Part shown: positions 1-58,516 of the stretch, piece by piece
Layout of the letters: every line of letters starts with the position of its first letter
Position numbering within the stretch: position 1 is the stretch's first letter
Virus record (IMG/VR): IMGVR_UViG_3300028909_000001
Direction: 5' to 3' (one strand)
DNA: 64,000 nucleotides
Source: a virus
Taxonomy: Duplodnaviria > Caudoviricetes
Program-made: the position numbers and the translations under genes
Notes under the pieces: model-generated
The model's database searches: none
Told to the model about the DNA's origin: nothing
The model's input: the letters and a program-made list of their open reading frames with translations, nothing else

Positions 1-549
1 GTTTTTTATATAATCTAATAAAGAAGGGATAGGGAGAAAATCTTTTTTATCTAACAAGCTCTCAGCAACCTTATCAAATACTTCTGAATTCTTTTCTTCC
101 AAATCTTTAGCTTCAGCATAACTAATACGTCCAGTACGAGGAGGCCAGATCACATTACGCATACTAGGAGCAACAATATCTTTTTGCACATCCTCTTTAC
201 GTTGATTGCTTACACTTCCCATCCCAGTTACATCATCTTTTAAGAATAGTTCTGCAAAATCTTCAGTAAGTGGGTACATTTGTTGATTGTTCTTACTATA
301 TAGTATGTCCAAGTCTTTAATTTTTCCATCAACAAAGAAAGCAGGGACAAACATGATTTGTCCATTATTACTCTTAAATCCAAAAACACCCACAGCTTTG
401 GTATCGTTATCACTCTTTTTAATTAGCTGGAAGCCTACTAAGAATGGTACTAGGTTACTTAGTTTGCCTTGTAACTTATCATATGCAAGAGTAAAGAACG
501 CTTTCTCAAAATCATCCTCAGAACTCGCTAATTTAGTTGAACTATTCAT
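1..549 (-). CDS. Hypothetical protein, truncated by window edge (MNSSTKLASSEDDFEKAFF...), K-x-A motif family
   Basis: Hand translation gives an open frame from ATG 549 to position 1; contains KLAS and KVAE; absent from the ORF track because there is no stop in the window. Confidence 0.8.
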   Translation of the reverse strand, partial: MNSSTKLASSEDDFEKAFFTLAYDKLQGKLSNLVPFLVGFQLIKKSDNDTKAVGVFGFKSNNGQIMFVPAFFVDGKIKDLDILYSKNNQQMYPLTEDFAELFLKDDVTGMGSVSNQRKEDVQKDIVAPSMRNVIWPPRTGRISYAEAKDLEEKNSEVFDKVAESLLDKKDFLPIPSLLDYIKN

Positions 550-633
550 AAATTGAAAGAAGAAGGCTTCTTATATATACTCATCTTCACTTATTATTAT
601 CATATTAGGAAAGTTATAGTTAAGCAATGTCTA

Positions 634-1917
634 TTATACATTAGCTAATTCACTCCTAACTTTATTTTGCATCATTTTATTCTCATTATTCAAGTTGTCT
701 ATGTCTTTATTATGATAATGATTATAAGCACCTATAGCAGCTGTAGGGGCTCCAATAATACCACCAGCTACTAGATATGGTTTTAAAGCTTCCCATCCCG
801 TAGCAGGCTTAGAAGGTGCTACGGGTAAGCCAGGTTTAAAACTATCATTAATATTCTGTCCTATCTGCTTAATCTTTTGAACTGAGTTGGATTTGTCAAA
901 GTTAATATTCTCAGCACCAGCACCTTCAATACCTTCAATAAGATTAGCTGGAGTCTTAAATACATTACTGCCTAATCGTGTTAATGCTTTTGGAAGAGTA
1001 TCAAAGTTACCACTATTATCATTTTGTCTTTCAGCTATAGTCTCTGCACTACCTAATATAGCTGAAGGAATCATTAAACTCTTGACTGGATTCCTAGTAA
1101 TAAAATTGTTTAACAGAGTATTAGGATGATTTACATTCTTTTGTAATATGTTTAGAGGAACTGCATTATCTTTAGCATTACTTATCAGTTCTTGTAATTT
1201 ATCAACTCCAATATTAGATGGTCGGTTTATATATTTTTTAAACAGAGGGTTGTCTACTATTCTATCCAATACTGATGCTTGTTTATGAGTAAGCATCTGT
1301 AATAAAGCATTTGTTCTTTCAGCTTCTTCTTTTCTATGCTTCCTAGTAATGGCATCATAAGCCATAACCGGGCCAGCAGAAAGAGCGGTAGCCCCTAATA
1401 TGCTTTTAACTGGATGATTCGCCATATCTTGCATAGTACTAGAGAATATGCCTTTACCAAATTCCTTGCCTGCCTCATTATAAAGAGGACCCATTTTCTC
1501 ATTAGCCTTGTCTATTAATGCTTCAGCAAATTCATTTCTAGTAGTAGGATTAGTTATATTAGATAGTGAATCCAATACTTTCTGAGCATTAGGATTTTTA
1601 TCTACACTATTTAATACACTATCAGAAGCAGAACCAAGAGCAGGACCAGCACCAGTAGCATTAAGTATTGCACTAGTTAGATGGCCTACTTGTCTACCAG
1701 TCCAAGGAGCACCACCCATTTCTAGATGACCGTGTAAAGCATTATTAATAGTCCTTCCACCTGATTCTAGAGTTGCTGAGGCTAACCCTGCTCCCAAACC
1801 TAGACCGGCAGCACCTTTCAAACCAGCTCTACTATAATCAAATATACGTCCTAATTGAGATAATACGTTAGCTTTCTTATCAATGAAATTAGTCAAAGCT
1901 TTAGTATTGGCATTCAT
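634..1917 (-). CDS. Glycine-zipper, membrane-like K-x-A protein (putative internal virion/ejection protein)
   Basis: ATG 1917 follows the upstream stop directly; KKAN and HKQAS motifs; GAAGLGLGAGLA and GGIIGAPTAAIG hydrophobic segments. Confidence 0.7.
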   Translation of the reverse strand: MNANTKALTNFIDKKANVLSQLGRIFDYSRAGLKGAAGLGLGAGLASATLESGGRTINNALHGHLEMGGAPWTGRQVGHLTSAILNATGAGPALGSASDSVLNSVDKNPNAQKVLDSLSNITNPTTRNEFAEALIDKANEKMGPLYNEAGKEFGKGIFSSTMQDMANHPVKSILGATALSAGPVMAYDAITRKHRKEEAERTNALLQMLTHKQASVLDRIVDNPLFKKYINRPSNIGVDKLQELISNAKDNAVPLNILQKNVNHPNTLLNNFITRNPVKSLMIPSAILGSAETIAERQNDNSGNFDTLPKALTRLGSNVFKTPANLIEGIEGAGAENINFDKSNSVQKIKQIGQNINDSFKPGLPVAPSKPATGWEALKPYLVAGGIIGAPTAAIGAYNHYHNKDIDNLNNENKMMQNKVRSELANV

Positions 1918-1918
1918 A

Positions 1919-4260: not shown

Positions 4261-4932
4261 TTAGTGATTGCTATATAGTTCAAATAGAGAAGATTTCTTT
4301 ACTATTTGAAATCTAGCAGGTGTAAGATCTAATACTTTAAGACTGCAAGAAATACCTAATATATCCGCCATAGCTAAGTGATGATGTCCGTCAAGGATAC
4401 TATCATTGAGTAACAATATATACTTATTATTATTCTTGGCTTGAAATTTATCGGCTAAAGCTTTCTTACCTAGTTTAGTCATTTCTTTCTTTATATGAGA
4501 TTTAGCAGATTCGTAGTTATGTATATCTACTTTAGGTAATAGCTCACTAGTTGTCATACCATAAAGTACGAGTTTGGTATCTTTATCAGCTCCAGGAGCA
4601 AATTTTAATACATCTGCTTGAGTATCTTTGGGTAGGCTATTTACTGTAATATCAGCTACATAAGCAGAAGCAACCTTGCCAAATTCAGACTTATTCGGTT
4701 CAGGTTTAGCTATATCAGGCATCCATTTATCAATTTTTTGGTCAACCTCATCTTTAGTACGATTTGTTAGTGGCTGATTCTGTTCCTGGGCATGTAAAGC
4801 TGGTTGTTCGATTTCTTCTGTTTCTTCAGCATTAACTAGCTGGTCTAGTAAGGATGAAGCAGCCTTCTTTACTTTTACATCCTTGGACTCTGCTGACTTT
4901 TCAAGAAATGATTGGATAACATTAAAGTTCAT
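4261..4932 (-). CDS. K-x-A protein with C-terminal ParB/Srx-like motif
   Basis: KSAE, KAAS and KVAS motifs; ILDGHHHL resembles the ParB-N DGHHR motif. Confidence 0.55.
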   Translation of the reverse strand: MNFNVIQSFLEKSAESKDVKVKKAASSLLDQLVNAEETEEIEQPALHAQEQNQPLTNRTKDEVDQKIDKWMPDIAKPEPNKSEFGKVASAYVADITVNSLPKDTQADVLKFAPGADKDTKLVLYGMTTSELLPKVDIHNYESAKSHIKKEMTKLGKKALADKFQAKNNNKYILLLNDSILDGHHHLAMADILGISCSLKVLDLTPARFQIVKKSSLFELYSNH

Positions 4933-4934: not shown

Positions 4935-5636
4935 TTAGATTTCTGGATTTCCGCCTGGTTCATCTTCACCATTATCATATTCACTATCTTCTGATTTTCT
5001 ATGCTTGCTATATAGATAAGCCCCTAAACCACCTAAACCTGCAGCGCCCAAACCTAATTCATAAGGAACTTTGTTGTTACTAATATGATTGGATAATACT
5101 TCAAATAAAGATTGGGGAGAAATATCATTCTTATGTAAAGCTTGTTCTGCTCCAGTTATAGCTCCATGTATACTAGGTTTAATAGTAGTATTAGCATTTA
5201 CATTATTAAATACATTACCTAATCCTTGACCAGCATAATGAGCACCTATGCCTCCACCTACTCCAAGTCCGGCAGCAGTACCTAGTCCCATGTCACCAAC
5301 TGATTTACTTTTGAATAGTTTACTCAATACGGATTTGGCATCAATATTAGCTGGTTCTGGTTTACTATTTAATTTAAGTTGATTTCCTCCAAAGCCATCT
5401 AATTTAATCTTATTACTTATAGAACCTAGATTAAGTTTACTAGATGGAAAGTCAGAACTAGAAGGAGCTTTAGGTATAGCTAAATTAGAAACAGCTGCCT
5501 CTGGTATAGAAGCACCAGTAGCCTCAGTAGCACCAGTAACTTCAGGTTTAAGTACATTAGCCAATTCTTCAAATGACTTAATAGGATTTGCAGAAGCTTT
5601 AATAAATCCGTTAATAAATGCGTTATTTAGATTCAT
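4935..5636 (-). CDS. FINGFIKA-leader protein with glycine zippers
   Basis: N-terminus MNLNNAFINGFIKASA; GLGTAAGLGVGGGIG and LGLGAAGLGGLG. Confidence 0.75.
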   Translation of the reverse strand: MNLNNAFINGFIKASANPIKSFEELANVLKPEVTGATEATGASIPEAAVSNLAIPKAPSSSDFPSSKLNLGSISNKIKLDGFGGNQLKLNSKPEPANIDAKSVLSKLFKSKSVGDMGLGTAAGLGVGGGIGAHYAGQGLGNVFNNVNANTTIKPSIHGAITGAEQALHKNDISPQSLFEVLSNHISNNKVPYELGLGAAGLGGLGAYLYSKHRKSEDSEYDNGEDEPGGNPEI

Positions 5637-6286
5637 ATACCTAGACCTTGTTGGGGTTGGGCTGATTGTGCTGGTTGGGTTGGTTGTGCAGGATTACTAC
5701 CATCCATCGGCCCACTACCATAAATACCTCCACCCATCATACCTTGTTGTTGCTGTTGTTGCATCATTTGTTCTTGTTGTTGCTTCTGCTGTTCTTCTCT
5801 CTGCTTCTGTTGCTCTTCCCTATGCATCTTAGCACGTTCATATTGATGCTTTTCTTTTAATTGTTCAGTCTTCAAATGACTCTGTGTTGCCTTCCCGCCA
5901 CTATGTAAATCTAATAGATCAGCTACACTTAATGTAACTGTAGTATCTTTTAACCCTCTAGACTGTTGTTTTGGGGCTAAATCATCACTTTGTCCTGGTT
6001 GTGGCTGACCTCCCTGACTCAGATCTTGCTGAGGTTGACCCTGGCCTTCTTGTTGCATTCCTTGGCCTTGACCCATTTGTTGAGCTAATTGAGCCATCTG
6101 TTGTGGGTCTGGTTGTTGACCTGATCCACCTTGACTTGGTTGTGGAGATTGTGAAGATTGTGGAGGTTGAGGTTGTTGCCCAGGTAAACCTCCTTGTTGT
6201 TGAGCAGCAGTACTATTAGGTGATGGTATAAATGCTTGTTTATGCATCATACTACCTATTTCTTCTAAGATTTGTCTGTAAGTCAT
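5633..6286 (-). CDS. Gln/Gly/Pro-rich low-complexity K-x-A protein
   Basis: HKQAF near N-terminus; long Q-rich tracts around a short ordered core. Confidence 0.75.
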   Translation of the reverse strand: MTYRQILEEIGSMMHKQAFIPSPNSTAAQQQGGLPGQQPQPPQSSQSPQPSQGGSGQQPDPQQMAQLAQQMGQGQGMQQEGQGQPQQDLSQGGQPQPGQSDDLAPKQQSRGLKDTTVTLSVADLLDLHSGGKATQSHLKTEQLKEKHQYERAKMHREEQQKQREEQQKQQQEQMMQQQQQQGMMGGGIYGSGPMDGSNPAQPTQPAQSAQPQQGLGI

Positions 6287-6587: not shown

Positions 6588-8309
6588 TCATTTCTCTATT
6601 TCTATGTTGTCTCCTGGCTCTAAATCACCTCTGTTATATGCAGCAACTACTTCTTGTTCAGTTTTATATTTTTTAGGAGTGTTATGTTTGTTTTCTGTAC
6701 TTAGTCCATAAAGGCCCAAAGCTGCTTCATTACTAGGGATTAATACAGGTTGAAAAGATTTAACAGATAATAAATTTTTGCTAGGCATCATTTTAGCTAT
6801 AACTTCTTTACGTGCTTCTTCAGTGCCTGGAATATGGACATTAAGTTGGTCTCCGTCGGAATTTTTTGTATATCCTCCTATAGTTAAGAAACTTCCGTAG
6901 TTTGGTATTTCCAAATCGTAAGCAGTATTAGATTGTAACTTAGTTACTCTTTTAACTTTCTTCCATTTTAAACTACCATTATACACCTTACCTAAATATG
7001 ATATCCATTGTTCATTATTCTTTAACTCAACTAGAAGTATTTCAATTATTTCTTTTAAAGTGCTTTTACGAAATCTATCTGTTTTAAATTCCTGGCTTAA
7101 TCTATATTTTAAATTATAAAGTTCCTTATTCTTTTGTAATTTATATTTATTATTAATAGCTGTAATTATATTTTTTTTAACAGTTTCTGAAGGAAGTGGT
7201 ACTAAGTCATTAAAGTTATCACCTATACCTGTTATATCTTTTAAGCTATTCTCTAATTTTTCCTTCTTCAACTCATGACTTATTCTAAATTTTGTTCTTT
7301 CAACTAACTTTTTAAATGTCCCAGTATGAAATCTGAAGGAGAAATTATCTTTACTACTCAGCCTAGATGCCCCTTTATATACTCCATAATTTAAATTTAA
7401 CCGTTTACTCATATATCTTAAACCGTTAATTAAATGAATTGATGATGTGCAGATACTTATATTTATAACTGTTTTATTAGAAGAACTGACACTTACTGTT
7501 CCATCAGTTGAGATTAACCCATCTAATATACCTAGTAGATGTTCTTCAGGACCGTTTAAACTAAAAGTAGGTATTTTCTTATTAAAAGCTCCACTCCCTA
7601 TCTGCTCTTTTAACCACTTATTAAACCAGGCACAAGAAGCTCTAGTTTTACCTCTAGAAGTAAATTGCCCCATCATATTCTCACTAACTCTATCTATTTC
7701 TTTAACTCCATTTTCATAAGGAAGATATTCACTATTACATAAATCAGCAAATACTTTTCTATTCATTAATTTTTCTTTGGTAGAACCGGCTAAGAAAAGT
7801 TGATTAGCATTATCTACCCAACCATCACCTAAAACCATTCCTATAAAAAGTCCGGTTTTATAATTAAGTTGCAAGTTAAATGAATTTTTAACAAATCCTT
7901 TTCCTCGTATTCCTTTCATTCCTCTAGTACCCATCATACCTTCAGCTAATACACTTGATTGAATATTGGGTGCTATAGTTGTAACATCACTAGGACAATA
8001 CCTACCTACTGCCTCTTCGGTATCAACTTCTTCAATACCACTATCAGTATAAGCTAATAAACTATGATCTTTGGCTGCAAATATAAAATCCCCATCTATA
8101 AATTGTACCAAATATAAAGGTACATTAGGATGAATCGAGAATGTCTTTGGATTTACCCAATCTACTTCACCAGTTATAAGGTTTAATGATTTTACTTCTA
8201 CATTACTAGGTACATCATAAAGGATATTACCATTTATAGTAGTAGTGGCTGAATTTTCTATTCTAGGGAAATCTGAAATAGGTACTAGTGTATATTTATA
8301 ATTAATCAT
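6588..8309 (-). CDS. rpoC: C-terminal split-intein half with LAGLIDADG endonuclease, fused to beta' middle segment (SDGDQLNVHIP...)
   Basis: Block B AAKDHSLL, LAGLIDADG motifs GMVLGDGW and DGLISTDGT, intein end GGYTKN|S; C-extein matches the DGDQMAVHVP region of bacterial beta'. Confidence 0.9.
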   Translation of the reverse strand: MINYKYTLVPISDFPRIENSATTTINGNILYDVPSNVEVKSLNLITGEVDWVNPKTFSIHPNVPLYLVQFIDGDFIFAAKDHSLLAYTDSGIEEVDTEEAVGRYCPSDVTTIAPNIQSSVLAEGMMGTRGMKGIRGKGFVKNSFNLQLNYKTGLFIGMVLGDGWVDNANQLFLAGSTKEKLMNRKVFADLCNSEYLPYENGVKEIDRVSENMMGQFTSRGKTRASCAWFNKWLKEQIGSGAFNKKIPTFSLNGPEEHLLGILDGLISTDGTVSVSSSNKTVINISICTSSIHLINGLRYMSKRLNLNYGVYKGASRLSSKDNFSFRFHTGTFKKLVERTKFRISHELKKEKLENSLKDITGIGDNFNDLVPLPSETVKKNIITAINNKYKLQKNKELYNLKYRLSQEFKTDRFRKSTLKEIIEILLVELKNNEQWISYLGKVYNGSLKWKKVKRVTKLQSNTAYDLEIPNYGSFLTIGGYTKNSDGDQLNVHIPGTEEARKEVIAKMMPSKNLLSVKSFQPVLIPSNEAALGLYGLSTENKHNTPKKYKTEQEVVAAYNRGDLEPGDNIEIEK

Positions 8310-8382
8310 ATAGACACAATACGGTGACTAGTTGAACTTGTCAATTAATTTTCTCTCTATAAATAATATAATCTACAATACT
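6861..8382 (-). mobile_element. Split intein in the RNAP catalytic motif (IntN 13 aa at 8344-8382; IntC at 6861-8309)
   Basis: Joining the exteins gives YGAD+SDGDQ; IntN SIVDYIIYREKIN is followed by TGA. Confidence 0.85.
8316..8344 (-). promoter_or_regulatory. sigma70-type promoter for a leaderless IntC transcript
   Basis: TTGACA(8344-8339)-N17-TATTGT(8321-8316)-N6-ATG(8309). Confidence 0.75.
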
Positions 8383-11094
8383 ATCCGCACCATACCCCTT
8401 AAATACTAATGGATTCATTTTAATAGTTTTATCTTTAGAATTTGGATTAGCAATTAAATTAAACCCTAATAGATTATATTTATGCCAGGCTGGATCTCGC
8501 GTTATAATACCAGGTCTTACTGCCATCTCTTCCTTTAATGCCATAACTGCTAATGGACTATGTTTTTTAACATAATCAACCGCACTAATAGCTGGTACAC
8601 CCTTCATAACCAACCTTCTAATAACAAAAGGTTTATATATCTGCCACAGCATATCTTGAGGTACACTAGCCTGGTCTACATCCAATCTAGTATCTGGAGT
8701 TAACACAGCTCTTCCCACCAAATCCAGACTCTTATTAACCACCTTACTCTGAAACATTGTACTTTTAGCCGTTCCACCCTTTAATCCAAACATAGTAGCT
8801 AATATACCTTTAACATTCTTATCCTGGTGTTTCTTATTAATTGGATCACCCAAACCAAAGGCAGCTTTTACTCCATCATATTCATTTTGTTTTAATTTCC
8901 TAACTACTTCGTCCGGCACATTCTCAGTATTTTTAAGTGCATTGTTATTTAGTATGAGGTCTTTATATAGATTATTAACATCACTAGTTAATACTACATC
9001 ACCCATCTTACTAGCAGGTCTGTATTGGGCTGGTAGAATAGGTACTTTATGCAACATCAAATCTTTAGGATGTAACTTATGTTCTTTTAGTGTAGTGAGA
9101 AATTCTAACAATTTAACGGCATCATCTCTTCTAGTCTTCTTCTCACTACCTATATACTTCTTCATTTCTTCTATCTTCTTATCCAGATCTATATTATTAA
9201 GGGCTTTTTCCATTTCCCCATCCACTACCATATCATTAAACTTAAACTTGGTAACTCCTAACAACTTTCTGAGATAATCCTCACTAATAGGATTAGGTAT
9301 GGGATGATTAAGATTTATGTGATTAAACTTGTCACCTAATATGCCTATTATATTAGGATCAAATAGTCCGCCAGGTTCATGTATTAGTTCTTCTTGATGT
9401 GGCTTGAATAATGAAGGTTTCTTAATTTCACCATTACTCAAAGCAGTAGTATCCTTATCTGTTAAAGGTAGGATATTAAAGGTATTACCAACTCTATCTA
9501 CATTAATACCGGCAGCTTTTAAACTATCTATGAACTTGTTAAAGATGAATGGAACTTTAGGGCTGGGTGGGGTTTGGCCCAATTTAATAGCACGCCAGAA
9601 TTCATCATTCTGAGTACCTTTAACAGTACCTATATCCTCCAATACATGTCTGACATCATGACTTAGCAAAGCTGTAGTACCTAAATTTCCTATTCTCTTT
9701 GATGAACCACCTTCCACTGCTGACTTACTTGGTTGCCGGTCGAAACTGTATCCGGACCCCTGACTTCTAGTACTTAGTTTATCTTCACTAATATGAGTTA
9801 ACCTACTATAGAATAATGGACCTACAACTGCTTCAATATTTCTACCAGTAATTGGATCATATAGTTGTTCAGTATCATTTATATTATTCTTCTTTAATAC
9901 ATTAATTACATTCTTAATAGATGAATCCTTTCTAAACTGATCCATTTTAATAGTCTTACCAGTCTTCTCAGCTAATTTACCAAGGCCTAGAGTTATGGCT
10001 AAGGCTGGTGCAACTCTTGACGTGATGGACATGGAGTTAAGCATGATATCAACTGGCTTCCCATTAGGTAGTAGTGGAGCTTGTGAGTCTGATACAATCT
10101 TCGTTACACCCTTAGCTCCAAAGTAATTAGAAATCTTATCACCAGGTAATAGACTTCTTACCGTCTTGATATGTACTGTAATAAGTGGGCCATGTTTGGT
10201 TACATCCACTACTTCTCCATCATGTTCGTAGTCCCAGGCTTCTGAATTATCTTTGAATGCATGTTTTAATACTTTACTCAGCTTACCTAATGCCAAATCT
10301 GTACTCTTTAATGCTCTGGGTGAGTAAGCCAGGATTACCGGGTCTCCAGCTTTCAATCTAGACCCTACTATAACCACTCCATCTGAATCTATATTTTTAA
10401 TTTGATTATTCGTATATTTATTAGGAAATAGTGCTACAAATTTATCCTTGCCTGCCTCTACTCCAAATTTCTCTTCAATACTAAAATTGATCATTTGTTC
10501 TGCTGCCAACTTTTTAGCACCACTTTCAGTCACTGCAAAAGCATCCTCAAAGTTGTCTGAGCGGTACGGGATTATAGCAGTAGTAAGGTTAGTTCCCATC
10601 GCCATATTACCTTCTTTATCATTATAATTACTGTAAGCTATTACTTCATTAGTTTTAACTTTATCACCAACCTTCACTTTAGGGGTATGAGTAATAAAGC
10701 TTTTCCTGCCTAAATGAAAGTTATTATATAGTTGATAGGTAGACTTGGTTTTATCTGTATTATCTACTTTAATATGATTTTCAGTAACTTCAGTAACAGT
10801 ACCAGGTTTAGTTGCAGTTACAGATAAATAATGTTTACCATATAGTTCTTGAGTACTTTCTTTGTTAGTGTCATCTGAACTTTCTACTAACGGACGTTCA
10901 GGATTTACTAAAGGTATAGCTTGGAGAGAAGCCTTGGCTCCTAGTAACACACGCCCGCCGGAAACTGAATTTAGCCCAGTAATCATGTTAGTAGGTAAAG
11001 CAAATAAATCCCTACTCGAAGGCATGGATATATGATCTTCATTTAGTTTGTCCACCTTCTCAAAATTTCCCTTATTAAGTACAGTATAACTCAT
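8341..11094 (-). CDS. rpoB: RNA polymerase beta C-terminal / beta' N-terminal fusion ending in IntN
   Basis: Beta motifs RVLLGAKASLQAIPL, NFEDAFAV, GDKISNYFGAKG, RLTHISEDK; beta' motifs GGLFDPNIIG, VPILPAQYRP, SDVNNLY, TRDPAWHK, NPLVFKGYGAD; start moved to ATG 11094 (TATAAT-N6-ATG). Confidence 0.93.
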   Translation of the reverse strand: MSYTVLNKGNFEKVDKLNEDHISMPSSRDLFALPTNMITGLNSVSGGRVLLGAKASLQAIPLVNPERPLVESSDDTNKESTQELYGKHYLSVTATKPGTVTEVTENHIKVDNTDKTKSTYQLYNNFHLGRKSFITHTPKVKVGDKVKTNEVIAYSNYNDKEGNMAMGTNLTTAIIPYRSDNFEDAFAVTESGAKKLAAEQMINFSIEEKFGVEAGKDKFVALFPNKYTNNQIKNIDSDGVVIVGSRLKAGDPVILAYSPRALKSTDLALGKLSKVLKHAFKDNSEAWDYEHDGEVVDVTKHGPLITVHIKTVRSLLPGDKISNYFGAKGVTKIVSDSQAPLLPNGKPVDIMLNSMSITSRVAPALAITLGLGKLAEKTGKTIKMDQFRKDSSIKNVINVLKKNNINDTEQLYDPITGRNIEAVVGPLFYSRLTHISEDKLSTRSQGSGYSFDRQPSKSAVEGGSSKRIGNLGTTALLSHDVRHVLEDIGTVKGTQNDEFWRAIKLGQTPPSPKVPFIFNKFIDSLKAAGINVDRVGNTFNILPLTDKDTTALSNGEIKKPSLFKPHQEELIHEPGGLFDPNIIGILGDKFNHINLNHPIPNPISEDYLRKLLGVTKFKFNDMVVDGEMEKALNNIDLDKKIEEMKKYIGSEKKTRRDDAVKLLEFLTTLKEHKLHPKDLMLHKVPILPAQYRPASKMGDVVLTSDVNNLYKDLILNNNALKNTENVPDEVVRKLKQNEYDGVKAAFGLGDPINKKHQDKNVKGILATMFGLKGGTAKSTMFQSKVVNKSLDLVGRAVLTPDTRLDVDQASVPQDMLWQIYKPFVIRRLVMKGVPAISAVDYVKKHSPLAVMALKEEMAVRPGIITRDPAWHKYNLLGFNLIANPNSKDKTIKMNPLVFKGYGADSIVDYIIYREKIN

Positions 11095-11185
11095 ATTTTG
11101 ATTATATACTCTTATTATTGATTTCCACAACCTCAAACTTTAGTCTTTAATTAACCTGGAATATACATTAAACTAGGTTAGATTT

Positions 11186-11536
11186 ATGAAGAGTTGGATT
11201 ATTATTGTATTTAGCTTGATTAGTATTAGTATTGAAGCACAACAATTAAATAAAGTCTATCTAAATCACTTATTAGACGCTATTTATCTAGCTGAGGGTG
11301 GGGCTAATACTAAATATCCTTATGGAGTGATTGGAGATTTTAAAAAGAGTCCAAGAATTATAGCTGCCAATACTATAAAACATAATTACAATAACTGGTT
11401 AAATAGTAGTTCTAAAACAGATTTCTTAAGATATCTACAACAACACTATTGTCCTATAAATGCTAAAAATGACCCTAATCATTTAAATGATAACTGGTAT
11501 AAGAATGTATCTTTAATAATGAAACAGTATGAATAA
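11186..11536 (+). CDS. Secreted lysozyme-like / transglycosylase-like protein
   Basis: Signal-peptide-like N-terminus; AIYLAEGG...PYGV...HYCP...LNDNWYKNV pattern. Confidence 0.55.
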   Translation: MKSWIIIVFSLISISIEAQQLNKVYLNHLLDAIYLAEGGANTKYPYGVIGDFKKSPRIIAANTIKHNYNNWLNSSSKTDFLRYLQQHYCPINAKNDPNHLNDNWYKNVSLIMKQYE

Positions 11537-12206
11537 GTTAGATGCATTTATTAATGGTTTTATCAAGGCTGCTGGCCCACTCCCTCCACCTCCTCCACCT
11601 CCTACACCTCCTACACCTCCAAAAATTCCGATGATTTCATTACCACACAATGCTTATACTGTTGGTGGTCTCCCTCCAAATATGCATAATTTTGTTAATA
11701 AAGGTGGTAATACCCTTAATATAAATGCTCACGGTGGTCCTGATAGTGCTATTAATGGAGAATATGCATTTCAAAGTGATTCTAATAATTCTAAAAACTT
11801 GCTTTATAACAATGAACCACTAACTTATACTCCTCAAACATTGGCTAAACTTATTGGTCCAGCTACTAACAATATCAATAATATTTATACTACTGCTTGT
11901 AATGGTGGGGATTGCTCCAATACTAATGTGAGTCCAAACGAAGTGCTTAAAGGGTTTGCTACTCCAGCTATGTACCGTAAATTATTCCCTAATCTTACTA
12001 ACGTTGTTCAAATCCCTCCCAGGCATTATGGTCCATTAATTCCAAGTCAATTTAAGACTAATGAATACCCAGACGTAGTGAATATAATAAATAGAATTAT
12101 TAAAGATAGGAATCCTAATGATCCAATAACTACAAGCTTGCCTCATCAATATAATCTACAAGGTGGTACTAATTGGGTGGATAAAGGGACTTACTATAAT
12201 TACTGA
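11529..12206 (+). CDS. FINGFIKAA-leader protein with Pro linker and possible clan CD cysteine protease domain
   Basis: MNKLDAFINGFIKAAG, poly-Pro, LNINAHGG (H68) ... IYTTACN (C124). Confidence 0.6.
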   Translation: MNKLDAFINGFIKAAGPLPPPPPPPTPPTPPKIPMISLPHNAYTVGGLPPNMHNFVNKGGNTLNINAHGGPDSAINGEYAFQSDSNNSKNLLYNNEPLTYTPQTLAKLIGPATNNINNIYTTACNGGDCSNTNVSPNEVLKGFATPAMYRKLFPNLTNVVQIPPRHYGPLIPSQFKTNEYPDVVNIINRIIKDRNPNDPITTSLPHQYNLQGGTNWVDKGTYYNY

Positions 12207-12207: not shown

Positions 12208-15063
12208 ATGACAGACCGACACAATGTATATGTAGTTGAATTGGATAAGGAGGTCTTAGCTAAAAAAAAGTTTTTAAAGTTGAATCCTAACTACAATCCA
12301 GAACTACCTCCACTTTATGTAGGAGAGACTGGTTTGAGTCCTGAAGCTAGATTCGAGAAACATAAAACTGGACTAAAAGCCAATATCTGGGTAAAGAATC
12401 ATGGGCTTAGACTTAGGCCTGAACATTATAAAGATTTAAATCCCATGCCATTTCATAAAGCTGAAAGAACCGAGGAATGGTTGGCAAAGAAGTTAAGGGC
12501 TGAGGGTTATCCAGTAGTAGGTGGGAATCCTAGAACCGTACCTTTGAAGAAGGAGGCTGGTGAAGAAGCGTTACAACCTCAACAAGCTAGAGTAATTAAG
12601 AAGATTCAAGATAAGAATACTTCAGGGTTAGTGCTTTATCATGGGATGGGTAGTGGAAAAGGATTGGTTATAGGCTCAAAGATATTAACACCTACAGGGT
12701 GGATAAATATAGAAGATATAAAACAAAACACAGAAGTGATTTCTGTTAATGGTGTGAAAGCTAATGTGACTGGAGTCTATCCTCAAGGGTATAAAGATGT
12801 GTATAAAATTACTTTTAGGGATGGTGCTACTATAGAATGTGATGATTCTCATTTATGGTTCACTCAATCTAGATGTGAACGTAAAAATTACGTTAAAAGC
12901 AAGGATCAATTTAAATATAGGTGGGTAGGTAAAGTCAGGAGTACAAGCGAAATTAAAGATACAGTATTATCTAATGATAATAGTTTAAATTATACTATTC
13001 CTATTGTGAAACCTATTCATTTTAAATATAGAAAACTTCCACTAGACCCGTATTTTGTTGGTTTGATTTTAGGAGATGGTAGTATTTGTGGAGGTGGCTG
13101 TGCGATAACAACAGCAGATGACGAAATTCTGCAATCAATTAAGTCTTTATTTCCAAATTTTACTCTTAAAAAATATTCTAAATATACTTATGGATTAGGT
13201 AAACCAAAAGGATATAACAGTTACATTGTTCAAGCATTTAAAGAATTAAAATTACAAGGTATGAATTGTTTTACAAAATTTATACCTGATATTTATATGT
13301 TTAACACAGTGAAATCTCGCATAGCATTATTACAAGGGTTAATGGATACTGATGGTACTGTAAGTAAAGATGGTATGGCTATAGTTTATGAGTCCGTCTC
13401 AAAACAGTTAGCAGATGGTGTGCAATTCCTTGTTGAATCACTAGGAGGTTTAGCAAAGATAACAACTAGAATTCCAACATATTCATATAAAGGAGAAAAA
13501 AAGAAAGGAGCTTTATGTTATAGGGTTTGGTTAAGTTTACCACCAAATATCAATCCATTTAGATTACACAGAAAAGCAATTCAAGTAATTCCTAAGACTA
13601 AATATAAACCAACTAGATATATAAAAAGTATAGAATATGTTGGAAAAAAAGAGACAATCTGTATTGCAATCGATGACCCTTCTCATCTATATATTACTGA
13701 ACATTGTATAGTTACGCACAATACACGCGAAAGTATTGAATCCTGGAAAGCATTAGGATTACCTAAGACTGATATCATTGTTCCAGCTTCATTAAAATCC
13801 AACTATCGTAAAGAGTTGCAGAGATGGTATGGCAATTCTAATCCTTCTAATATCAACTTAATTAGTCAACAAAGATTTGCTAATTCTAAGTTAAATACTC
13901 CAATATACAATACTGGTTTGCAGATAGTAGATGAAGCTCAAAAAGCTAAAAATAGTAATAGTGAATTATATCAAGCATTGGTTAAAACGAATCCAGCCAA
14001 GCGCCTTCTCCTTTCAGGAACTCCAATTCTAAATGATCCTACTGAATTAAGTAATCTTGTTAACTTAGTAGCAAAGAAACAAGTATTACCTAATAATTTA
14101 TCTGAGTTTAAAAAACAATATTTTAAACAGGAAGAAGTTAAACCTGGATTTTTTGGTAGATTAATGGGAGTTTCTCCAGGCATTCAATATAAGCTACAGA
14201 ATAAAGCTCAACTATCTAAGATTCTGGATAAGTATGTTGACTACTATAAACCTACTCAAGAAGGATATCCTACTGTGACGGAGCAAGAAGTTAATGTTCC
14301 TATGGGTGCTAAACAACAAGAGATATATGATACAATACTCGGAAAGACACCATTTTGGACACGTTATCGAATTAAACATAATTTACCTCCTGGACGTGGT
14401 GAATTAGAAGGTATGCGAGCATTTTTAAGTGGACCTAGACAAGTAAGCAATTCAACTGCTGGATTTACTAAAAATTTAAGAGACGTGGAATCCCCTAAAA
14501 TAGATGCAGCTTTTAAGTTTTTACAAATACAATTAAAACAAGATCCAAACTATAAAGCTCTAGTATATAGTAATTATCTTAATAATGGTCTTAGACCTTA
14601 TGAATCATTATTAAGAAAGAATAATATACCATTTGGAGAGTTTAGTGGAGCTGTAACACCTACTATAAGAGACCAGGCAGTTAAAGATTATAATGCTAAT
14701 AAATTAAGAGCATTATTAGTATCAGGAGCTGGGGCTGAAGGATTGGATTTGAAGGCTACAAATTTGACACAACTTTTGGAACCTTTTTGGAACCTTCCTA
14801 AAGAGAGACAAGTTATCGGAAGATCAGTACGTTTCCATAGTCATGATAGTTTGCCTCCAGAAAAGAGAAAGGTTTTAGTGCAACGTTATTTTGCCACACC
14901 AAAACCTAGTTTATTGGATAAACTTACATTCAATCCCAAACCTACTGGTACAGATTCATATATTAGAAATTCAATCAGTAAACCAAAAGATAATCTTAAT
15001 CAAGAAATAACTAATTTAATAGCCAAGAATCAAGAACCTAAATCTTGGCTTAACTACAATTAA
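12208..15063 (+). CDS. GIY-YIG-like domain fused to an SNF2/SF2 helicase with intein
   Basis: VYVVEL...LYVGETG; Walker A GMGSGK|T, DEAQ, LLLSGTP, GAEGLDL, QVIGRSVR; start moved to ATG 12208 (TATAAT-N7-ATG). Confidence 0.9.
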   Translation: MTDRHNVYVVELDKEVLAKKKFLKLNPNYNPELPPLYVGETGLSPEARFEKHKTGLKANIWVKNHGLRLRPEHYKDLNPMPFHKAERTEEWLAKKLRAEGYPVVGGNPRTVPLKKEAGEEALQPQQARVIKKIQDKNTSGLVLYHGMGSGKGLVIGSKILTPTGWINIEDIKQNTEVISVNGVKANVTGVYPQGYKDVYKITFRDGATIECDDSHLWFTQSRCERKNYVKSKDQFKYRWVGKVRSTSEIKDTVLSNDNSLNYTIPIVKPIHFKYRKLPLDPYFVGLILGDGSICGGGCAITTADDEILQSIKSLFPNFTLKKYSKYTYGLGKPKGYNSYIVQAFKELKLQGMNCFTKFIPDIYMFNTVKSRIALLQGLMDTDGTVSKDGMAIVYESVSKQLADGVQFLVESLGGLAKITTRIPTYSYKGEKKKGALCYRVWLSLPPNINPFRLHRKAIQVIPKTKYKPTRYIKSIEYVGKKETICIAIDDPSHLYITEHCIVTHNTRESIESWKALGLPKTDIIVPASLKSNYRKELQRWYGNSNPSNINLISQQRFANSKLNTPIYNTGLQIVDEAQKAKNSNSELYQALVKTNPAKRLLLSGTPILNDPTELSNLVNLVAKKQVLPNNLSEFKKQYFKQEEVKPGFFGRLMGVSPGIQYKLQNKAQLSKILDKYVDYYKPTQEGYPTVTEQEVNVPMGAKQQEIYDTILGKTPFWTRYRIKHNLPPGRGELEGMRAFLSGPRQVSNSTAGFTKNLRDVESPKIDAAFKFLQIQLKQDPNYKALVYSNYLNNGLRPYESLLRKNNIPFGEFSGAVTPTIRDQAVKDYNANKLRALLVSGAGAEGLDLKATNLTQLLEPFWNLPKERQVIGRSVRFHSHDSLPPEKRKVLVQRYFATPKPSLLDKLTFNPKPTGTDSYIRNSISKPKDNLNQEITNLIAKNQEPKSWLNYN
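12661..13722 (+). mobile_element. Class 3-like intein (354 aa) with LAGLIDADG endonuclease
   Basis: Starts GLVIGSKILTPTGW; DDSHLW, TICIAI and IVTHN|T give the WCT signature; GLILGDG and GLMDTDG motifs. Confidence 0.9.
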
Positions 15064-15883: not shown

Positions 15884-16678
15884 ATGCATTTAAATGAACA
15901 CTTTATTAATGGTTTTATTAAGGCTGCTCTAACTAATCCAGGCAATATTAGTCAACCTAAGCCAGCTCCTAAACCCAGCTCTCCACCTATTCAATCAGCT
16001 CCTTCACCTAACCCAGCTCCACCTCCTCCTTTAGCCAACACTCCTCCACCTCAAGTTCTACCTACTCAACCACCTACTAATCTAAATCATGGTATTATGC
16101 CACAATATGATGGTTGGAAATTGAGGGGATATGCTAAATCTAATAATGGTGGAACTTATGATTACCAAGATACTGCTGGTAAGTATCATTTAATGAATCA
16201 TGAATTAGGTGAAGGTGCTCAAAGTTTGGAGGATTTTAACAACGATAATAGTATATCTAATGAAAAACCAATTGCTAGACAAGCTATTACTCCAGAAGTA
16301 GAGAACCAAGCTTTGCGTTCAGCTTATAGTAATTTAGGGAAACCAGATCTGGATTTGAATAGATCTGCTAACGATATATTAGGTGATCCATATACTAGTG
16401 TTGGTCTTCCTAGAGTAGATAGCGTTACTAGAGGTGGTAGTCCTGAACCTGATCCTAATGAGTTATATCAAAGACTGCAACACAATATGACGAATAATAA
16501 CGGTCTATTCGATCAATTACAAAGTGCTGCTAATGGTCTGCCTGGTAGATTGTGGAATAGTGATCCTGGAATTCATGAACAAGGTATGGGTCAACTATTG
16601 CAGATGGTTAAACATCTAGCCACTACTAATCCACCTTTAGCTCAAGAATTGTATCAGAAGTACTTTGGGCAAAATTGA
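15884..16678 (+). CDS. FINGFIKAA-leader protein with Pro linker and unknown cargo domain
   Basis: MHLNEHFINGFIKAAL followed by a Pro-rich tract. Confidence 0.75.
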   Translation: MHLNEHFINGFIKAALTNPGNISQPKPAPKPSSPPIQSAPSPNPAPPPPLANTPPPQVLPTQPPTNLNHGIMPQYDGWKLRGYAKSNNGGTYDYQDTAGKYHLMNHELGEGAQSLEDFNNDNSISNEKPIARQAITPEVENQALRSAYSNLGKPDLDLNRSANDILGDPYTSVGLPRVDSVTRGGSPEPDPNELYQRLQHNMTNNNGLFDQLQSAANGLPGRLWNSDPGIHEQGMGQLLQMVKHLATTNPPLAQELYQKYFGQN

Positions 16679-23738: not shown

Positions 23739-23759
23739 TGGTCAGGGTCAAGGGCAGGT
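23437..23759 (+). repeat. Hexamer tandem repeat, copy 2
   Basis: Visible tandem array. Confidence 0.95.
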
Positions 23760-46687: not shown

Positions 46688-47374
46688 TTAGTATTCAGGG
46701 ATTAATACTTGTTTATCTAGAATTTCTTTGTGACTCATCCATTTAAGTTTTCCGTGCTTATCCTTCATAATCCTATATAAATTACAATCTGCTCCTTTAG
46801 CTACATTTTGATTTATATAATTAGTAACACCTATCTTCGTGTTTTCTGCAATATGAACGGGATCATAAAAGCCAAAACTAGAAGGACTTACATTTCTAGA
46901 TTCATCTGGTATTGCTGACTCTGATACAATTCCTCCCTGCCCCATCTTAGTTACTTTATGACTATTATCAAAGTGTTCTAATGGATTAATACCTTCAACG
47001 TTATTAGCTAAAGGATTTCCTACAATAACCGACCTGACTTGCTGAGAGAAGAAACCAGGAGTAAGCCAGTTAAGATTCTTTTTCATTTGCATTTTATAAG
47101 CTGCTTTTTGTTGTATTTTACCTGCATCCTTATTTATATGGTCGGCTATAAAATCCTCTAGTCCCATAAATTTGGAGAATTTAAGGTTATCTCGATCATC
47201 ACCTTCAACCTCACCTTTATTAATCTTAATTAATTTTGCTGAACTAGCTAATAAGACTTGGGGACTTATTTTATCCTCATCTACTCCAATATTATTCTTA
47301 ACAATATCTTTATCTAGGGAGGTATGATTTAACCATTCCTTAAATTTAGTTAGTTTCTCGGTTCTAGTTAACAT
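46688..47374 (-). CDS. rpoB: RNA polymerase beta middle subunit (fork-loop region)
   Basis: GDDRDNL, INPLEHFDNSHKVTKMGQGG, RNVSPSSFGFYDPVHIAENTKIGV correspond to DDIDHL / NPLSEITHKRRISALGPGG / [24 protein letters not shown]. Confidence 0.87.
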   Translation of the reverse strand: MLTRTEKLTKFKEWLNHTSLDKDIVKNNIGVDEDKISPQVLLASSAKLIKINKGEVEGDDRDNLKFSKFMGLEDFIADHINKDAGKIQQKAAYKMQMKKNLNWLTPGFFSQQVRSVIVGNPLANNVEGINPLEHFDNSHKVTKMGQGGIVSESAIPDESRNVSPSSFGFYDPVHIAENTKIGVTNYINQNVAKGADCNLYRIMKDKHGKLKWMSHKEILDKQVLIPEY

Positions 47375-55395: not shown

Positions 55396-55433
55396 ACTTA
55401 AATTCTAAACATACTTAAACTCAATTTTTAGCT

Positions 55434-55997: not shown

Positions 55998-56004
55998 ATT
56001 AAAA

Positions 56005-56033: not shown

Positions 56034-56075
56034 CTATACATATAATTAAAAAGGTGGTCCTTGCCGAATAATAAT

Positions 56076-57380
56076 TTATTTCTCCACCCTATTTATCGGA
56101 TTAAACGCATAAATCACGTTTATTAGGTAGTTTCTATAATTAGGCGATACGTTAGGAGGTGTCATACCACTATCCAGCATAATATCAGATAGTTCTTTTA
56201 ACAAAGTATGATGATTCAGAAAAGCCTTCCTCTTTATCTTGAAAGCTGCGGTTTCTCCTTCCTTAATAACTAGTCCAAATTGATAATAAACATCATTTTC
56301 TTTCTTTATCTTGGTTAAATCTAGAGCGAAGTTACTATATTCAATCAGATTCTTACCTGACTGATAATAGTAACGGTCATTGTTTCTAGTAAATCTGGTT
56401 CCGCTAATACTGACTTCACTAGTCTTTGATGACAACCAATATTTCTTTAGATCGGTCTTGGTTACTTGTTCCAGTTCACCTAATTGAGTTATGGTCAAAT
56501 TCCCTAAACAACCTTTTAATTGTTCAGCCAGATTTTGTGATTTAATCAAGGTTAGAGGATTTACATTGGTAGCTAAATTACTTTGATTACTCCAAATCTC
56601 GATACATTGCGTTGGTTGTAGTGAATGATGTAGTGTAAGCTTCTTATCTCCAACCCAATTAACTATCTTATTAGACCAGGTACATCCCTCATTAGTTAAC
56701 AAGTCCCTGATACTACCTACTATATTAGTACCTAGTTTACCATACCAACCAGGCCCATCAGTTTGGAAAATCATCTCATTTATAGACATATCACATATCT
56801 CAAATATCTCCAAAGTTGCAATCTTGTAGTTAGGTGCGAAATAGGTCGGTACTAACAATTTATTAGCATGTCTATTATGCAGTTTAAGACTGGCAAAGTC
56901 TCTACTATTTATCATCTTATAAGTTAACAATCCTACTCCAGTATTGATAAATTGAGTCATCCCTAACTCATTTAACAGTTCATTTAATTTATAGTTTCTT
57001 CCTTTATAAGTTATCAAGTTCTCTAATGCACACATTCTACTATACTTCCACAATTTCTCATTAGTTCTTAATTGTGTATAATCATTAACAATACCGGCTT
57101 CTATATATTCTGCATACTTGGCTGGTACTTCCAACAAGTCTGGATGCTCCTTGATATAATAACGATAGCATCTACTCATCAATAACAAGTCATCATTCCT
57201 AATCTCTTTAGGTTGATTATAAGCGAATAAATCAATGGCATTAAATGTCATTTGCTCATCTTTTGAAAGGGCATACCATCCTAGATTTGGTAGTTTTCTA
57301 TACATTTTAGGAACCTCCCAGCCGAAATGAGCCACAGCTGAAGGTAAATGTACTTTACTACATAAAGATTTGACATCCAT
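56076..57380 (-). CDS. Hypothetical protein (434 aa)
   Basis: Long ATG ORF with upstream TTGACC-N17-TATACT. Confidence 0.8.
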   Translation of the reverse strand: MDVKSLCSKVHLPSAVAHFGWEVPKMYRKLPNLGWYALSKDEQMTFNAIDLFAYNQPKEIRNDDLLLMSRCYRYYIKEHPDLLEVPAKYAEYIEAGIVNDYTQLRTNEKLWKYSRMCALENLITYKGRNYKLNELLNELGMTQFINTGVGLLTYKMINSRDFASLKLHNRHANKLLVPTYFAPNYKIATLEIFEICDMSINEMIFQTDGPGWYGKLGTNIVGSIRDLLTNEGCTWSNKIVNWVGDKKLTLHHSLQPTQCIEIWSNQSNLATNVNPLTLIKSQNLAEQLKGCLGNLTITQLGELEQVTKTDLKKYWLSSKTSEVSISGTRFTRNNDRYYYQSGKNLIEYSNFALDLTKIKKENDVYYQFGLVIKEGETAAFKIKRKAFLNHHTLLKELSDIMLDSGMTPPNVSPNYRNYLINVIYAFNPINRVEK

Positions 57381-57475
57381 ATTAACAAGTAAGTATAGTC
57401 TTGTACTTGTATCAGGTCAACCATATTACTATTAATTTGACTTGTTGATATAATAGATATTGCTATAATAGAAAT

Positions 57476-58516
57476 ATGAAGAAATTTGACATTACTGATG
57501 ACAACTCTTATAGCGAATTGTATAGATTTGTTGATTTAAATACATTGCCAGCCTATGTTAAAGAAGCGGAAGTATTGACTAAAACTGCTACAGAAAGTTT
57601 GCCAGATACTGCTTTTGCTGATCAGATGCATAGAGCTTTTCCCATTAATACTGCTGAAGATACTTATTTGAGTAATGCTTTCTTTATTAATAAAAGGGCT
57701 GAACTTACCAAACTTTGTGGTGAAAAGTATATTAATGAGGTAGGTGTCAGAATTGTTAAAGCTGCTCAGATATTTGATATCTATGATGACATTGCTAATT
57801 ATAATGGTGGTCTGGATGTTAAACAAGCTGCTGATTATACTGAACAGTCCATAGTATCTATTGAGATTGGTGGAAATGAATATGATTTGTTTCCTTATAA
57901 GACTGCTGAAGATCTTAAATTTCAAGCATCAGAATTTGTTAAGAATCTAAACAATTACCCATTTAATTGGCGTACTAAAATAGCTTCAGCTTTCGTTGAG
58001 AAGGCTGTGGAACAGAATATCGAGGATTTACCTGATTTGATTTGTAAGTATGCCGGTCTATTCTATCCAGATACCAGGGAATTTTCTGATACCCTAGCTG
58101 GAAGAATGCATAGGTTGAGTGAAGAGTATCAAACTAAGTATCAACCTATTATAGAGAAGGCAGCTAATATCTCTTCCAAGACTGAGGCCTTTGAACTTTG
58201 TAGTGAAGCTTATAATATAGAAAAATTAGCTGGAGTATATGAAAAACCACTATTATATAGGGAGATGGGAGACTTAGTTGATCGAACCATGACACTAGAT
58301 TTGACCAAAATTGCTGATATGCTGAATGTAGTCAAAATTGGTGGTAGTTGTTATCATATAAATGATTTGCAGAAAGTATCCAAAGATATATATGACAAGG
58401 CTTTTGATTGTGGATTAGACCCAAAGAATGCCAATGAATTAATGGATGTCTTGCCTACTGTCCCTCGTTCAGATTTTGAGCTGTTTAAAGAACTATCCGG
58501 CATAACCGCACTTTAA
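57476..58516 (+). CDS. Multi-K-x-A helical protein
   Basis: KEAE, KTAT, KAAQ, KQAA, KAAN, KLAG, KIAD; TATAAT-N6-ATG. Confidence 0.8.
   Translation: MKKFDITDDNSYSELYRFVDLNTLPAYVKEAEVLTKTATESLPDTAFADQMHRAFPINTAEDTYLSNAFFINKRAELTKLCGEKYINEVGVRIVKAAQIFDIYDDIANYNGGLDVKQAADYTEQSIVSIEIGGNEYDLFPYKTAEDLKFQASEFVKNLNNYPFNWRTKIASAFVEKAVEQNIEDLPDLICKYAGLFYPDTREFSDTLAGRMHRLSEEYQTKYQPIIEKAANISSKTEAFELCSEAYNIEKLAGVYEKPLLYREMGDLVDRTMTLDLTKIADMLNVVKIGGSCYHINDLQKVSKDIYDKAFDCGLDPKNANELMDVLPTVPRSDFELFKELSGITAL

Follow-up and report, generated by a model that had tools for sequence, protein, structure and literature searches.

The prohead protease gp21 of phage T4 recognises an (L/I)-x-E motif, and capsid-targeting sequences (CTS) mark the internal proteins IPI-III and Alt, the T4 leader sequence being MKTYQEFIAE. 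Herpesvirus assemblin cuts (V/L/I)-x-Ala↓Ser (here and below the arrow marks an established or putative cleavage bond), and herpes proteases act on only two to three sites in the scaffold/protease precursor. All characterised prohead proteases of the phiKZ/201phi2-1/SPN3US type cut after Glu (PMC5694885), and the phiKZ and SPN3US enzymes cleave themselves on the C-terminal side of the protease domain (PMC5694885, PMC10052503). The present analysis concerns a K-x-A motif (x or a dot standing for any residue) that recurs in a 64,000-nucleotide stretch of viral DNA (IMG/VR record IMGVR_UViG_3300028909_000001; Caudoviricetes), hereafter termed the window, and in the head-morphogenesis module upstream of it. 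In its fuller form [FLIM]-x-K-x-A, or h-x-K-x-A with h for a hydrophobic residue, it is usually followed by E, A, S or G. With a probability of roughly 60% we consider h-x-K-x-A to be the recognition motif of this lineage's gp21-fold head-maturation protease, so that it would combine a prohead-protease code with a portable N-terminal capsid-targeting leader. This reading is based on the concentration of the motif in the head module, its recurrence in seven related phages, the conservation of its Lys and Ala, the gp21/assemblin fold of the protease and the lack of enrichment of Glu-type motifs.

The window corresponds to bases 48898-112897 of a 151-kb viral contig (35% GC) and contains split multisubunit RNA polymerase (RNAP) genes, an intein-bearing SNF2 helicase, a terminase and many orphan genes. 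The relative mainly used for comparison, G001, is a 134.6-kb IMG/VR contig (loci L006 and L015-L017), whose capsid protein is 90% and whose other head and cargo proteins are 25-75% identical to those of the phage studied here. Its CheckV completeness is 62%, and the present contig may likewise be incomplete. Protein searches identified relatives on hundreds of metagenomic contigs of up to 293 kb. Distant cultured relatives with similar gene order are Salmonella phage Arash (OQ632216) and Vibrio phage D69 (capsid protein 28%, protease 30% identical). The closest of them is Arash, with which the capsid protein, the protease, a gp218-like protein, the split RNAP, the SNF2 helicase and the terminase are shared at 25-33% identity. 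Arash has been described as an 'orphan' myovirus, and its published virion proteome includes RNAP subunits and the helicase homologue gp217 (PMC10585845); its protease is unannotated and processing is unmentioned in that report (PMC10585845). A megablast search of a 10-kb stretch against a phage genome collection gave no match, and Pfam and PHROGs provided nothing usable for the leader/cargo proteins or the K-x-A-dense proteins.

Distribution and conservation of the motif

The sequence-only reading had described a genome-wide K-x-(A/S/G) motif, and the tetrapeptides it cited are all present in the genes it named. In this broad form the motif occurs at expectation (630 observed versus 618 expected in the genome, 253 versus 273 in the window), with K-x-S depleted and K-x-G neutral; the Ser and Gly alternatives were wrong. 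Enrichment beyond composition is found for K-x-A alone, which is present 275 times versus 206 expected genome-wide. The excess sits in about 24 of the 199 proteins and has three carriers, namely the head-morphogenesis module upstream of the window, the N-termini of about 15 unrelated window proteins and the dense protein 57476 (window genes are named by their first coordinate). The recurrence across the genome can therefore be confirmed in part: the motif is more restricted than had been stated and has its main weight in the head module, the densest region being genome 31.8-49.4 kb just upstream of the window.

Among 20 unselected open reading frames from the capsid gene to the gene of a 747-residue protein, K-x-A was counted 90 times versus 40.9 expected and [FILMV]-x-K-x-A 41 times versus 9.6. 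A narrower set of 11 head-module proteins gave 83 versus 32.8, while KA, K..A, K...A, AK, A.K, R.A, E.A, K.S and K.G range in these proteins between 0.8 and 1.1 of expectation; in the remaining 175 proteins K-x-A is found 154 times versus 152.6 expected. Over whole window proteins the excess is weak (99 versus 84) and is carried by the N-terminal leaders and by 57476, 27804 and 4261. A blind scan of all residue pairs with gaps of 0-3 in the first 40 residues ranks K.A first of about 1,600 combinations in the proteome (66 versus 32.9) and second, after P.P, in the window N-termini (32 versus 13.4). In residues 2-45 of the window proteins [FILMV]-x-K-x-A occurs 20 times versus 4.4 in local shuffles, a value reached in 0 of 500 shuffles, and the reverse pattern 2 times versus 4.5. 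Shuffling confined to these residues rules out a pure N-terminal composition bias, and pure chance is excluded as source of the K-x-A excess. Among the enriched tripeptides of the proteome KQA ranks seventh. The excess is confined to head and putative internal proteins, other proteins being at expectation, as would be required of a prohead-protease motif in general.

The pattern recurs in relatives. The head modules of four relatives from metagenomes, bounded solely by their position, contain 344 K-x-A versus 152 expected (z 17) and 168 [FILMV]-x-K-x-A versus 36, with the reverse pattern at 37 versus 36. Among the roughly 1,600 pair/gap combinations K.A scores highest there (z 15.7, compared with 6.8 for the runner-up), and the flanking RNAP and tail genes of the four show no K-x-A excess. 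The consensus of the 344 sites is F/L/M/I at P5, E/V/I at P4, K at P3, any residue at P2, A at P1, E/A/S at P1' and E/D at P2'. In Arash, the six proteins gp220, gp223, gp242, gp225, the protease gp222 and gp218 hold 41 [FILMV]-x-K-x-A versus 4.6 expected, compared with 64 versus 68 in the remaining proteome. Vibrio phage D69 strongly repeats the pattern. A protease homologue is also encoded by Bacillus phage G, where the excess, judged by eye and without shuffling, is weaker and involves this protease and several genes next to it; K-x-A is missing from the major capsid protein of phage G. The protease search also matched mycobacteriophages of cluster C and Gordonia phages. The gene order of the head module, with the protease near the capsid and scaffold genes, is the same in the phage studied, G001, L018-L021, Arash and D69.

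Between the phage studied and G001 both K and A are kept at 73 of 96 sites, versus 24% expected from the other K and A residues in the same proteins. The identity per position is 0.84 for K and 0.78 for A, compared with 0.47-0.59 for the middle residue and the eight flanking positions on each side. The conservation check suggested with the sequence-only reading thus comes out in its favour overall, but not at several of the sites cited for it (see below).

The capsid protein gene is located upstream of the window at genome 31850-32809. Every distinct N-terminal variant listed among 120 homologues carries h-x-K-x-A at residues 2-6 and K-[KEQD]-A at residues 25-27, and the former is kept whatever the length of the N-terminus (MEKIA, MLEKIA, MSLEKIA, MDKVA, MTKQA). 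The corresponding site reads L-[VT]-K-E-A↓G in the capsid proteins of Arash (gp226) and D69. In the shortest N-terminal versions of the motif Met1 occupies the hydrophobic position, as in MEKIA↓D of the capsid protein, MPK[SK]A↓S at the start of the RNAP large subunits of Arash and D69, and MIKTA↓E of 27804 homologues. As would be expected of a prohead-protease motif, it is present in the putative capsid propeptide and in the protease itself.

The head protease in comparison with known systems

The protease gene (genome 40783-43341, about 5.6-8.1 kb upstream of the window start) encodes 852 residues including a Hint/LAGLIDADG intein and gives a weak PHROG match to 'head maturation protease'; an intein-free orthologue has 453 residues. 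The intein is inserted in a conserved GTG/xNRNGD block (slash, insertion point) near the start of the catalytic domain, and both this intein and that of the SNF2 helicase are absent from the G001 orthologues. An AlphaFold2 (AF2) model based on 41 homologues (mean predicted local distance difference test, pLDDT, 78) consists of a beta-rich domain (residues 16-200), a disordered linker (202-239) and a helical C-terminal domain. Among 48,161 PDB chains the best match to domain 16-200 is T4 gp21 (5jbl_A; Z 9.1, 135 aligned residues, root-mean-square deviation 3.4), followed by the proteases of varicella-zoster virus (1vzv_A; Z 7.1) and human cytomegalovirus (Z 5.4). Foldseek with the full-length model found a weak gp21 match (probability 0.77), and a sequence search of the protease against the PDB yielded nothing. 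According to the model, the protease, probably a serine protease, has the T4 gp21/herpesvirus assemblin fold. The candidate catalytic residues His91 and Ser142 are invariant in the 41 homologues, with a spacing that presumably resembles that of gp21. K-x-A is conserved in the same homologues at K29/A31, K211/A213, K241/A243 and K252, A254 being retained by majority consensus only. In the model, K211-A213 lies inside the disordered linker, 241-243 just past its end and 252-254 also beyond it. A predicted complex of the protease domain with capsid residues 1-45 scored 0.24, which is below the mark and speaks neither for nor against binding.

The likeness to T4 comprises the protease fold, a single short motif common to the capsid N-terminus, core/scaffold proteins, the protease and the leaders of unrelated proteins, and the leaders themselves, which are amphipathic, about 10-16 residues long and motif-ended (MSNLYNEFVSGFLKLA compared with MKTYQEFIAE). 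In contrast to T4, where P1 is Glu, the motif would have its Lys at P3 and its Ala at P1, provided that cleavage occurs behind the Ala. The protease, with its large helical C-terminal domain, measures about 450 residues, and the leader continues into a module of two helices that carries another site. With phiKZ gp175, 201phi2-1 and SPN3US gp245 the phage probably shares the packaging of a multisubunit RNAP and of many internal proteins by a large phage, and it has several motif copies per putative propeptide and conserved protease-linker sites that match the C-terminal-side self-cleavage there. However, those systems use S/A/G-x-E or A-x-E, and the lineage is a separate one, with a small capsid protein of about 319 residues which is not of the large phiKZ type. 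In the head interval of this phage the T4-type [LI]-x-E and the phiKZ-type [SAG]-x-E reach observed-to-expected ratios of 1.07 and 0.79, respectively; in the relatives the ratios are 1.05 and 1.04. As Glu motifs are not enriched, the system does not belong to the Glu-specific code, though its working may be alike. The assemblin likeness consists of the fold, Ala at P1 and a frequent Ser at P1' in Arash and D69 (KEA↓S, KAA↓S, KVA↓S), and the difference of a Lys fixed at P3, a hydrophobic P5 and dozens of marked proteins; the herpes-type [VLI]-x-A is not enriched here. Arash has the same motif concentrated in the same module. Overall, the system would work like T4 gp21/CTS and phiKZ/SPN3US processing but fails their defining feature, Glu at P1.

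That such a code is distinct from those of T4 gp21 and phiKZ gp175 had been proposed from the sequence, and the proposal is consistent with every comparative test run, apart from its Ser/Gly alternatives, several of its examples and the fact that part of the signal stems from one shared leader. A literature search for a Lys-x-Ala or Ala-P1 motif of a phage prohead protease found none, only Glu-specific systems and P1 (E120↓S121), in a body of literature that lacked most subscription journals, so that novelty is unproven.

Leaders and other proteins of the window

The window proteins under consideration are as follows (nt, nucleotide positions in the window; HMM, hidden Markov model).

1-549, minus strand: N-terminal 183 residues of the 747-residue head-module protein, a homologue of Arash structural protein gp218 (BLAST)
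634-1917, minus strand: 427-residue protein with a Gly-rich membrane-like segment and KKA, KGA, KQA (HKQAS) and KPA; weak member
4261-4932, minus strand: 223-residue protein with six K-x-A sites ([FILMV]-x-K-x-A 5 versus 0.69 expected)
4935-5636, minus strand: 233-residue putative cargo protein, leader MNLNNAFINGFIKAS, K-A-S variant at about nt 5592-5600 (leader HMM, E 8e-12)
5633-6286, minus strand: 217-residue Q/P-rich protein, leader MTYRQILEEIGSMMHKQA↓FIPSP, K-Q-A at nt 6233-6241, kept as LTKRA↓FIPSP in G001
11529-12206, plus strand: 225-residue putative cargo protein, leader MNKLDAFINGFIKAA↓ followed by a poly-Pro linker, K-A-A at nt 11565-11573 (leader HMM)
12208-15063, plus strand: SNF2 helicase with a LAGLIDADG intein and an N-terminal extra domain (Pfam SNF2, Helicase_C, LAGLIDADG)
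15884-16678, plus strand: 264-residue putative cargo protein, leader MHLNEHFINGFIKAA↓LTNPGN, K-A-A at nt 15920-15928, then a Pro-rich linker (leader HMM, E 3e-9)
26782-27801, plus strand: 339-residue protein with a leader-like amphipathic N-terminus, MNKTSFYKGLLAELTKL..., without K-x-A; doubtful member
27804-28565, plus strand: 253-residue protein with a glycine-zipper membrane-like segment and a Pro-rich tail, four K-x-A in the N-terminal 78 residues
28570-28782, plus strand: 70-residue protein, MFLYLTQILKEA↓NEFG, K-E-A at nt 28597-28605, identical ILKEAN in G001
30001-30339, plus strand: 112-residue protein, K-E-A at nt 30022-30 and LSKEA↓GGGG at nt 30091-99, then a Gly-rich hydrophobic segment
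30743-31711, plus strand: 322-residue protein, MNEILKKA↓SGYTPP (nt 30758-66), K-S-A (nt 30971-79) and K-E-A↓A (nt 31220-28)
31701-32501, plus strand: 266-residue protein, MQNNAFYRGVLSEINKFA↓QVTPPTP, K-F-A at nt 31746-54; weak member
32504-33202, plus strand: RNAP gene, one of four matching Arash gp206, directly after the leader-protein cluster (BLAST; PHROG and Pfam RNAP)
57476-58516, plus strand: 346-residue protein with 12 K-x-A sites about 26 residues apart (12 versus 2.3 expected, top of the proteome)

A strict leader family of the type MN...AFINGFIKAA comprises 4935, 11529, 15884 and two genes upstream of the window; looser leaders are found in 27804, 5633, 28570, 30001, 30743, 31701, 4261 and the 747-residue protein. 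The profile of the strict family describes a module of about 30 residues, [FY]-x-x-G-F-[IV]-K-x-A-x3-G-[LIV]...L-L-K-x-A, which is present in all relatives, and its HMM matches the N-termini of 4935, 11529, 15884, 27804 and the two upstream genes. The G001 orthologues of 4935 and 11529 carry GYIDGFVKAA and FLTGMIKAA, respectively. As with the T4 CTS, the same short N-terminal peptide, ending in the motif, stands on proteins whose remainder is unrelated by BLAST; the carriers had been called otherwise unrelated, and indeed only leaders of 15-31 residues are found in common. The Ala is often followed immediately by a linker rich in Pro or Gly (FIKAA↓GPLPPPPPPP, LSKEA↓GGGG, KQA↓FIPSP), with glycine-zipper, membrane-like segments further downstream. 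Inside some head-module proteins (L019:12132-12821, L021:14171-14977 and genome 36378-37178) the leader module is tandemly repeated two to three times, each copy ending in K-x-A; judged from the sequence, the copies look like beads to be cut apart.

Several sites are well kept in G001. The 747-residue protein starts with MNSSTKLA↓SS, and its K-L-A at nt 526-534 is retained as QIKLAA. K-K-A at nt 4861-4869 and K-V-A↓S at nt 4669-4677 of 4261 are conserved. Both sites of 30001 persist with a changed middle residue (LVKTA, LQKTA↓G), and in 30743 two sites are kept in register, the N-terminal one being shifted by one residue (ALEKVA). All four sites of 27804 (nt 27843-51, 27894-902, 27978-86 and 28029-37) are kept. 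In nine homologues of this protein K14/A16, K31/A33 and K59 are invariant while the middle residue varies, and the fourth site, kept in 8 of the 9, stands ahead of a variable, unalignable region. The motif had also been said to close a helix; in an AF2 model of 27804, with a mean pLDDT of 47 and about 64 moderately confident first residues, two of the four sites lie at helix ends. HKQA is present in 3 copies versus 0.13 expected, in 634-1917, 5633-6286 and 27804-28565, each after a hydrophobic stretch; K-x-A is kept in the orthologue only for 5633 and 27804, and the His is not kept.

The dense protein 57476 is, from its spacing of sites, a candidate scaffold/core protein that would be cut into small peptides. 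Among the Arash proteins gp242 matches it best, though weakly (E 0.087); gp242 is found in virions and contains 8 such sites, and the neighbouring pair 58518/gp243 looks syntenic. The notion that polyproteins are cut into modules appears plausible for 27804, 30743 and 57476.

The SNF2 helicase 12208 is a homologue of the virion-detected Arash gp217 (PMC10585845). Its K-E-A↓G (nt 12550-12558) belongs to the linker that precedes the helicase core, and close to this place, though not in register, IKKA↓D is present in G001. As this linker follows the extra domain, the latter might be cut off. The extra N-terminal domain of about 115 residues (window 12208-12560) is absent from Arash gp217. Directly upstream of and overlapping 11529, a gene at window 11186-11536 encodes a 116-residue protein with a signal-peptide-like N-terminus and no family match. 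Gene 26782 is the first of the cluster running up to the RNAP subunit gene; in G001 it was missed by the genome search, and a 26%-identical orthologue was found by BLAST. A search for relatives sharing the locus of gene 28779 found none.

The single 1,525-residue RNAP subunit gp206 of Arash corresponds here to four genes spread over 40 kb on both strands (32504-33202, 46688-47374, 8341-11136 and 6588-8309), the last of which has an intein at the catalytic loop. Two hexamer arrays (GGTCAR)n at window 22608-22831 (about 37 copies) and 23437-23758 (about 54 copies), whose minus-strand open reading frames read TLTLTL..., lie within a GC-richer stretch at about 16-24 kb (41-43% versus 34%) that is full of short open reading frames. 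tRNA genes were rejected as cause of the higher GC content, none being found in that stretch.

Proposed processing pathway and its alternatives

We propose the following scenario. The protease would cut at the motif in the procapsid, most likely after Ala, although cleavage between K and x (K↓x-A) may be an alternative. The N-terminus of the capsid protein would thereby be trimmed, and scaffold-like or core proteins, namely the head-module proteins of 388, 463, 266 and 131 residues and 57476, would be chopped to peptides of 10-40 residues. The protease would also free its own catalytic domain from the C-terminal helical domain. Short N-terminal leaders would be removed from the unrelated cargo proteins 4935, 5633, 11529, 15884, 27804, 28570, 30001 and 30743. 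The portable module of about 15-30 residues, [FY]-x-x-G-F-[IV]-K-x-A...G-[LIV]...L-L-K-x-A, is the probable capsid-targeting address, like the T4 CTS, and we infer that the leader proteins are packaged in the capsid. Of proteins with a leader-like N-terminus, only gp221 of Arash is reported in virions (PMC10585845).

Several observations weigh against this scenario. None of the window leader proteins has a homologue of proven virion location. Peptide-level cleavage data were sought in the Arash paper and its supplements, which are based on fully tryptic searches, and none were found (PMC10585845); the coverage values in Table 2 of that paper (100% from 2 peptides) cannot denote sequence coverage and were left out of account. 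In Arash N-terminal sites are not enriched overall (17 versus 15) and leaders are far fewer. Cited sites not conserved in G001 are all four of 634 (orthologue 34% identical), including KKAN and HKQAS, KSAE of 4261 and KFAQ of 31701 (IQKIGE in G001). Part of the N-terminal signal is one homologous leader of about 30 residues, the FINGFIKAA type, and not a set of independent sites; this homology, together with the internal tandem repeats, means that K and A could be conserved for folding or binding, and the leader module could act by binding instead of cutting. Finally, the first 65 residues of 27804 make up a helical domain that is well conserved and has many further invariant positions, an unusual trait for a throw-away propeptide.

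Some of these points lead to the view that K-x-A is the core of an uncut docking helix or hairpin which binds the inner procapsid surface, the scaffold or the portal, with the helix-turn-helix of the P22 scaffolding protein and the T4 CTS as precedents; selection would in that case act on binding, and the proteins would enter the capsid unprocessed at these positions. Besides the tandem repeats in head proteins and the helical domain of 27804, it would account for the further conserved positions of the leader (G-F before the K, G-[LIV] and L-L-K-x-A after it), and a conserved Lys suits an electrostatic contact. However, a hairpin is impossible at residues 2-6 (MEKIA, MPKSA, MIKTA) or in the disordered linker of the protease, the sites recur about every 26 residues in 57476 and gp220-like proteins without the remainder of the module, and the constraint lies on K and A only while their neighbours drift. 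Since only these two residues are constrained, a linear enzyme motif fits better than a binding surface, and we regard docking without cleavage as unlikely. A maturation role would be dispensable altogether if the pattern arose from shared ancestry of a mobile leader or repeat combined with a helical composition rich in Lys, Ala and Glu. The head-module proteins are indeed helical, with a high content of K, A, E and Q, and the members of the strict leader family are homologous. Outside the N-termini a mild genome-wide enrichment is seen for [FILMV]-x-K-x-A (74 versus 46) as well as for the reverse pattern (71 versus 46), which resembles helix periodicity. Yet composition is controlled by the within-protein shuffles, only the K.A spacing in that one direction is enriched, the dense proteins are missed by the leader HMM and unrelated by BLAST, and the pattern is found again in orthologues whose divergence is beyond the reach of BLAST, for example the scaffold-like proteins of Arash and the phage studied; this explanation therefore appears very improbable. 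Lastly, the motif might be cut by another enzyme, either a host protease or a second phage protease. In Staphylococcus phage 80alpha the host protease Prp trims capsid and scaffold N-termini that mimic ribosomal protein L27, and this precedent lends the idea some substance, as the link from the gp21-fold protease to the sites is inferential. However, motif and protease homologue occur together in phages of Salmonella, Vibrio, Bacillus/Lysinibacillus and unknown hosts from freshwater or soil, we know of no host enzyme of such specificity shared by all of them, and the protease's own linker is marked in the 41 homologues, so that we give this alternative hardly any credence.

Returning to the proposed protease code, a wider evolutionary proposal, to which we assign slightly less than even chances, is that a clade of gp21-fold proteases (Arash-like phages with virion RNAPs, the widespread environmental relatives of 130-290 kb, D69 and possibly phage G) swapped the Glu at P1 common to all characterised myovirus prohead proteases for Lys at P3 and Ala at P1. 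It would have done so together with a two-helix address module with two cut sites that loads dozens of fast-evolving, unrelated cargo proteins, including glycine-zipper proteins encoded beside the virion RNAP genes.

If the code is true, it provides a simple sequence rule for a large and nearly unannotated lineage, whose capsid homologues are found on hundreds of metagenomic contigs and of which Pfam and PHROGs recognise almost nothing. The rule would predict mature capsid ends, scaffold proteins and the orphan genes for capsid-packaged, probably injected proteins. The leader would be usable as a packaging tag in Arash (Salmonella) and D69 (Vibrio), as are the targeting sequences of T4 and P1. 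Furthermore, the specificity of the gp21/assemblin superfamily would be more plastic than the cleavage after Glu of T4, phiKZ, SPN3US and P1 implies, and the K-x-A code may bridge to the Ala↓Ser specificity of the herpesviruses.

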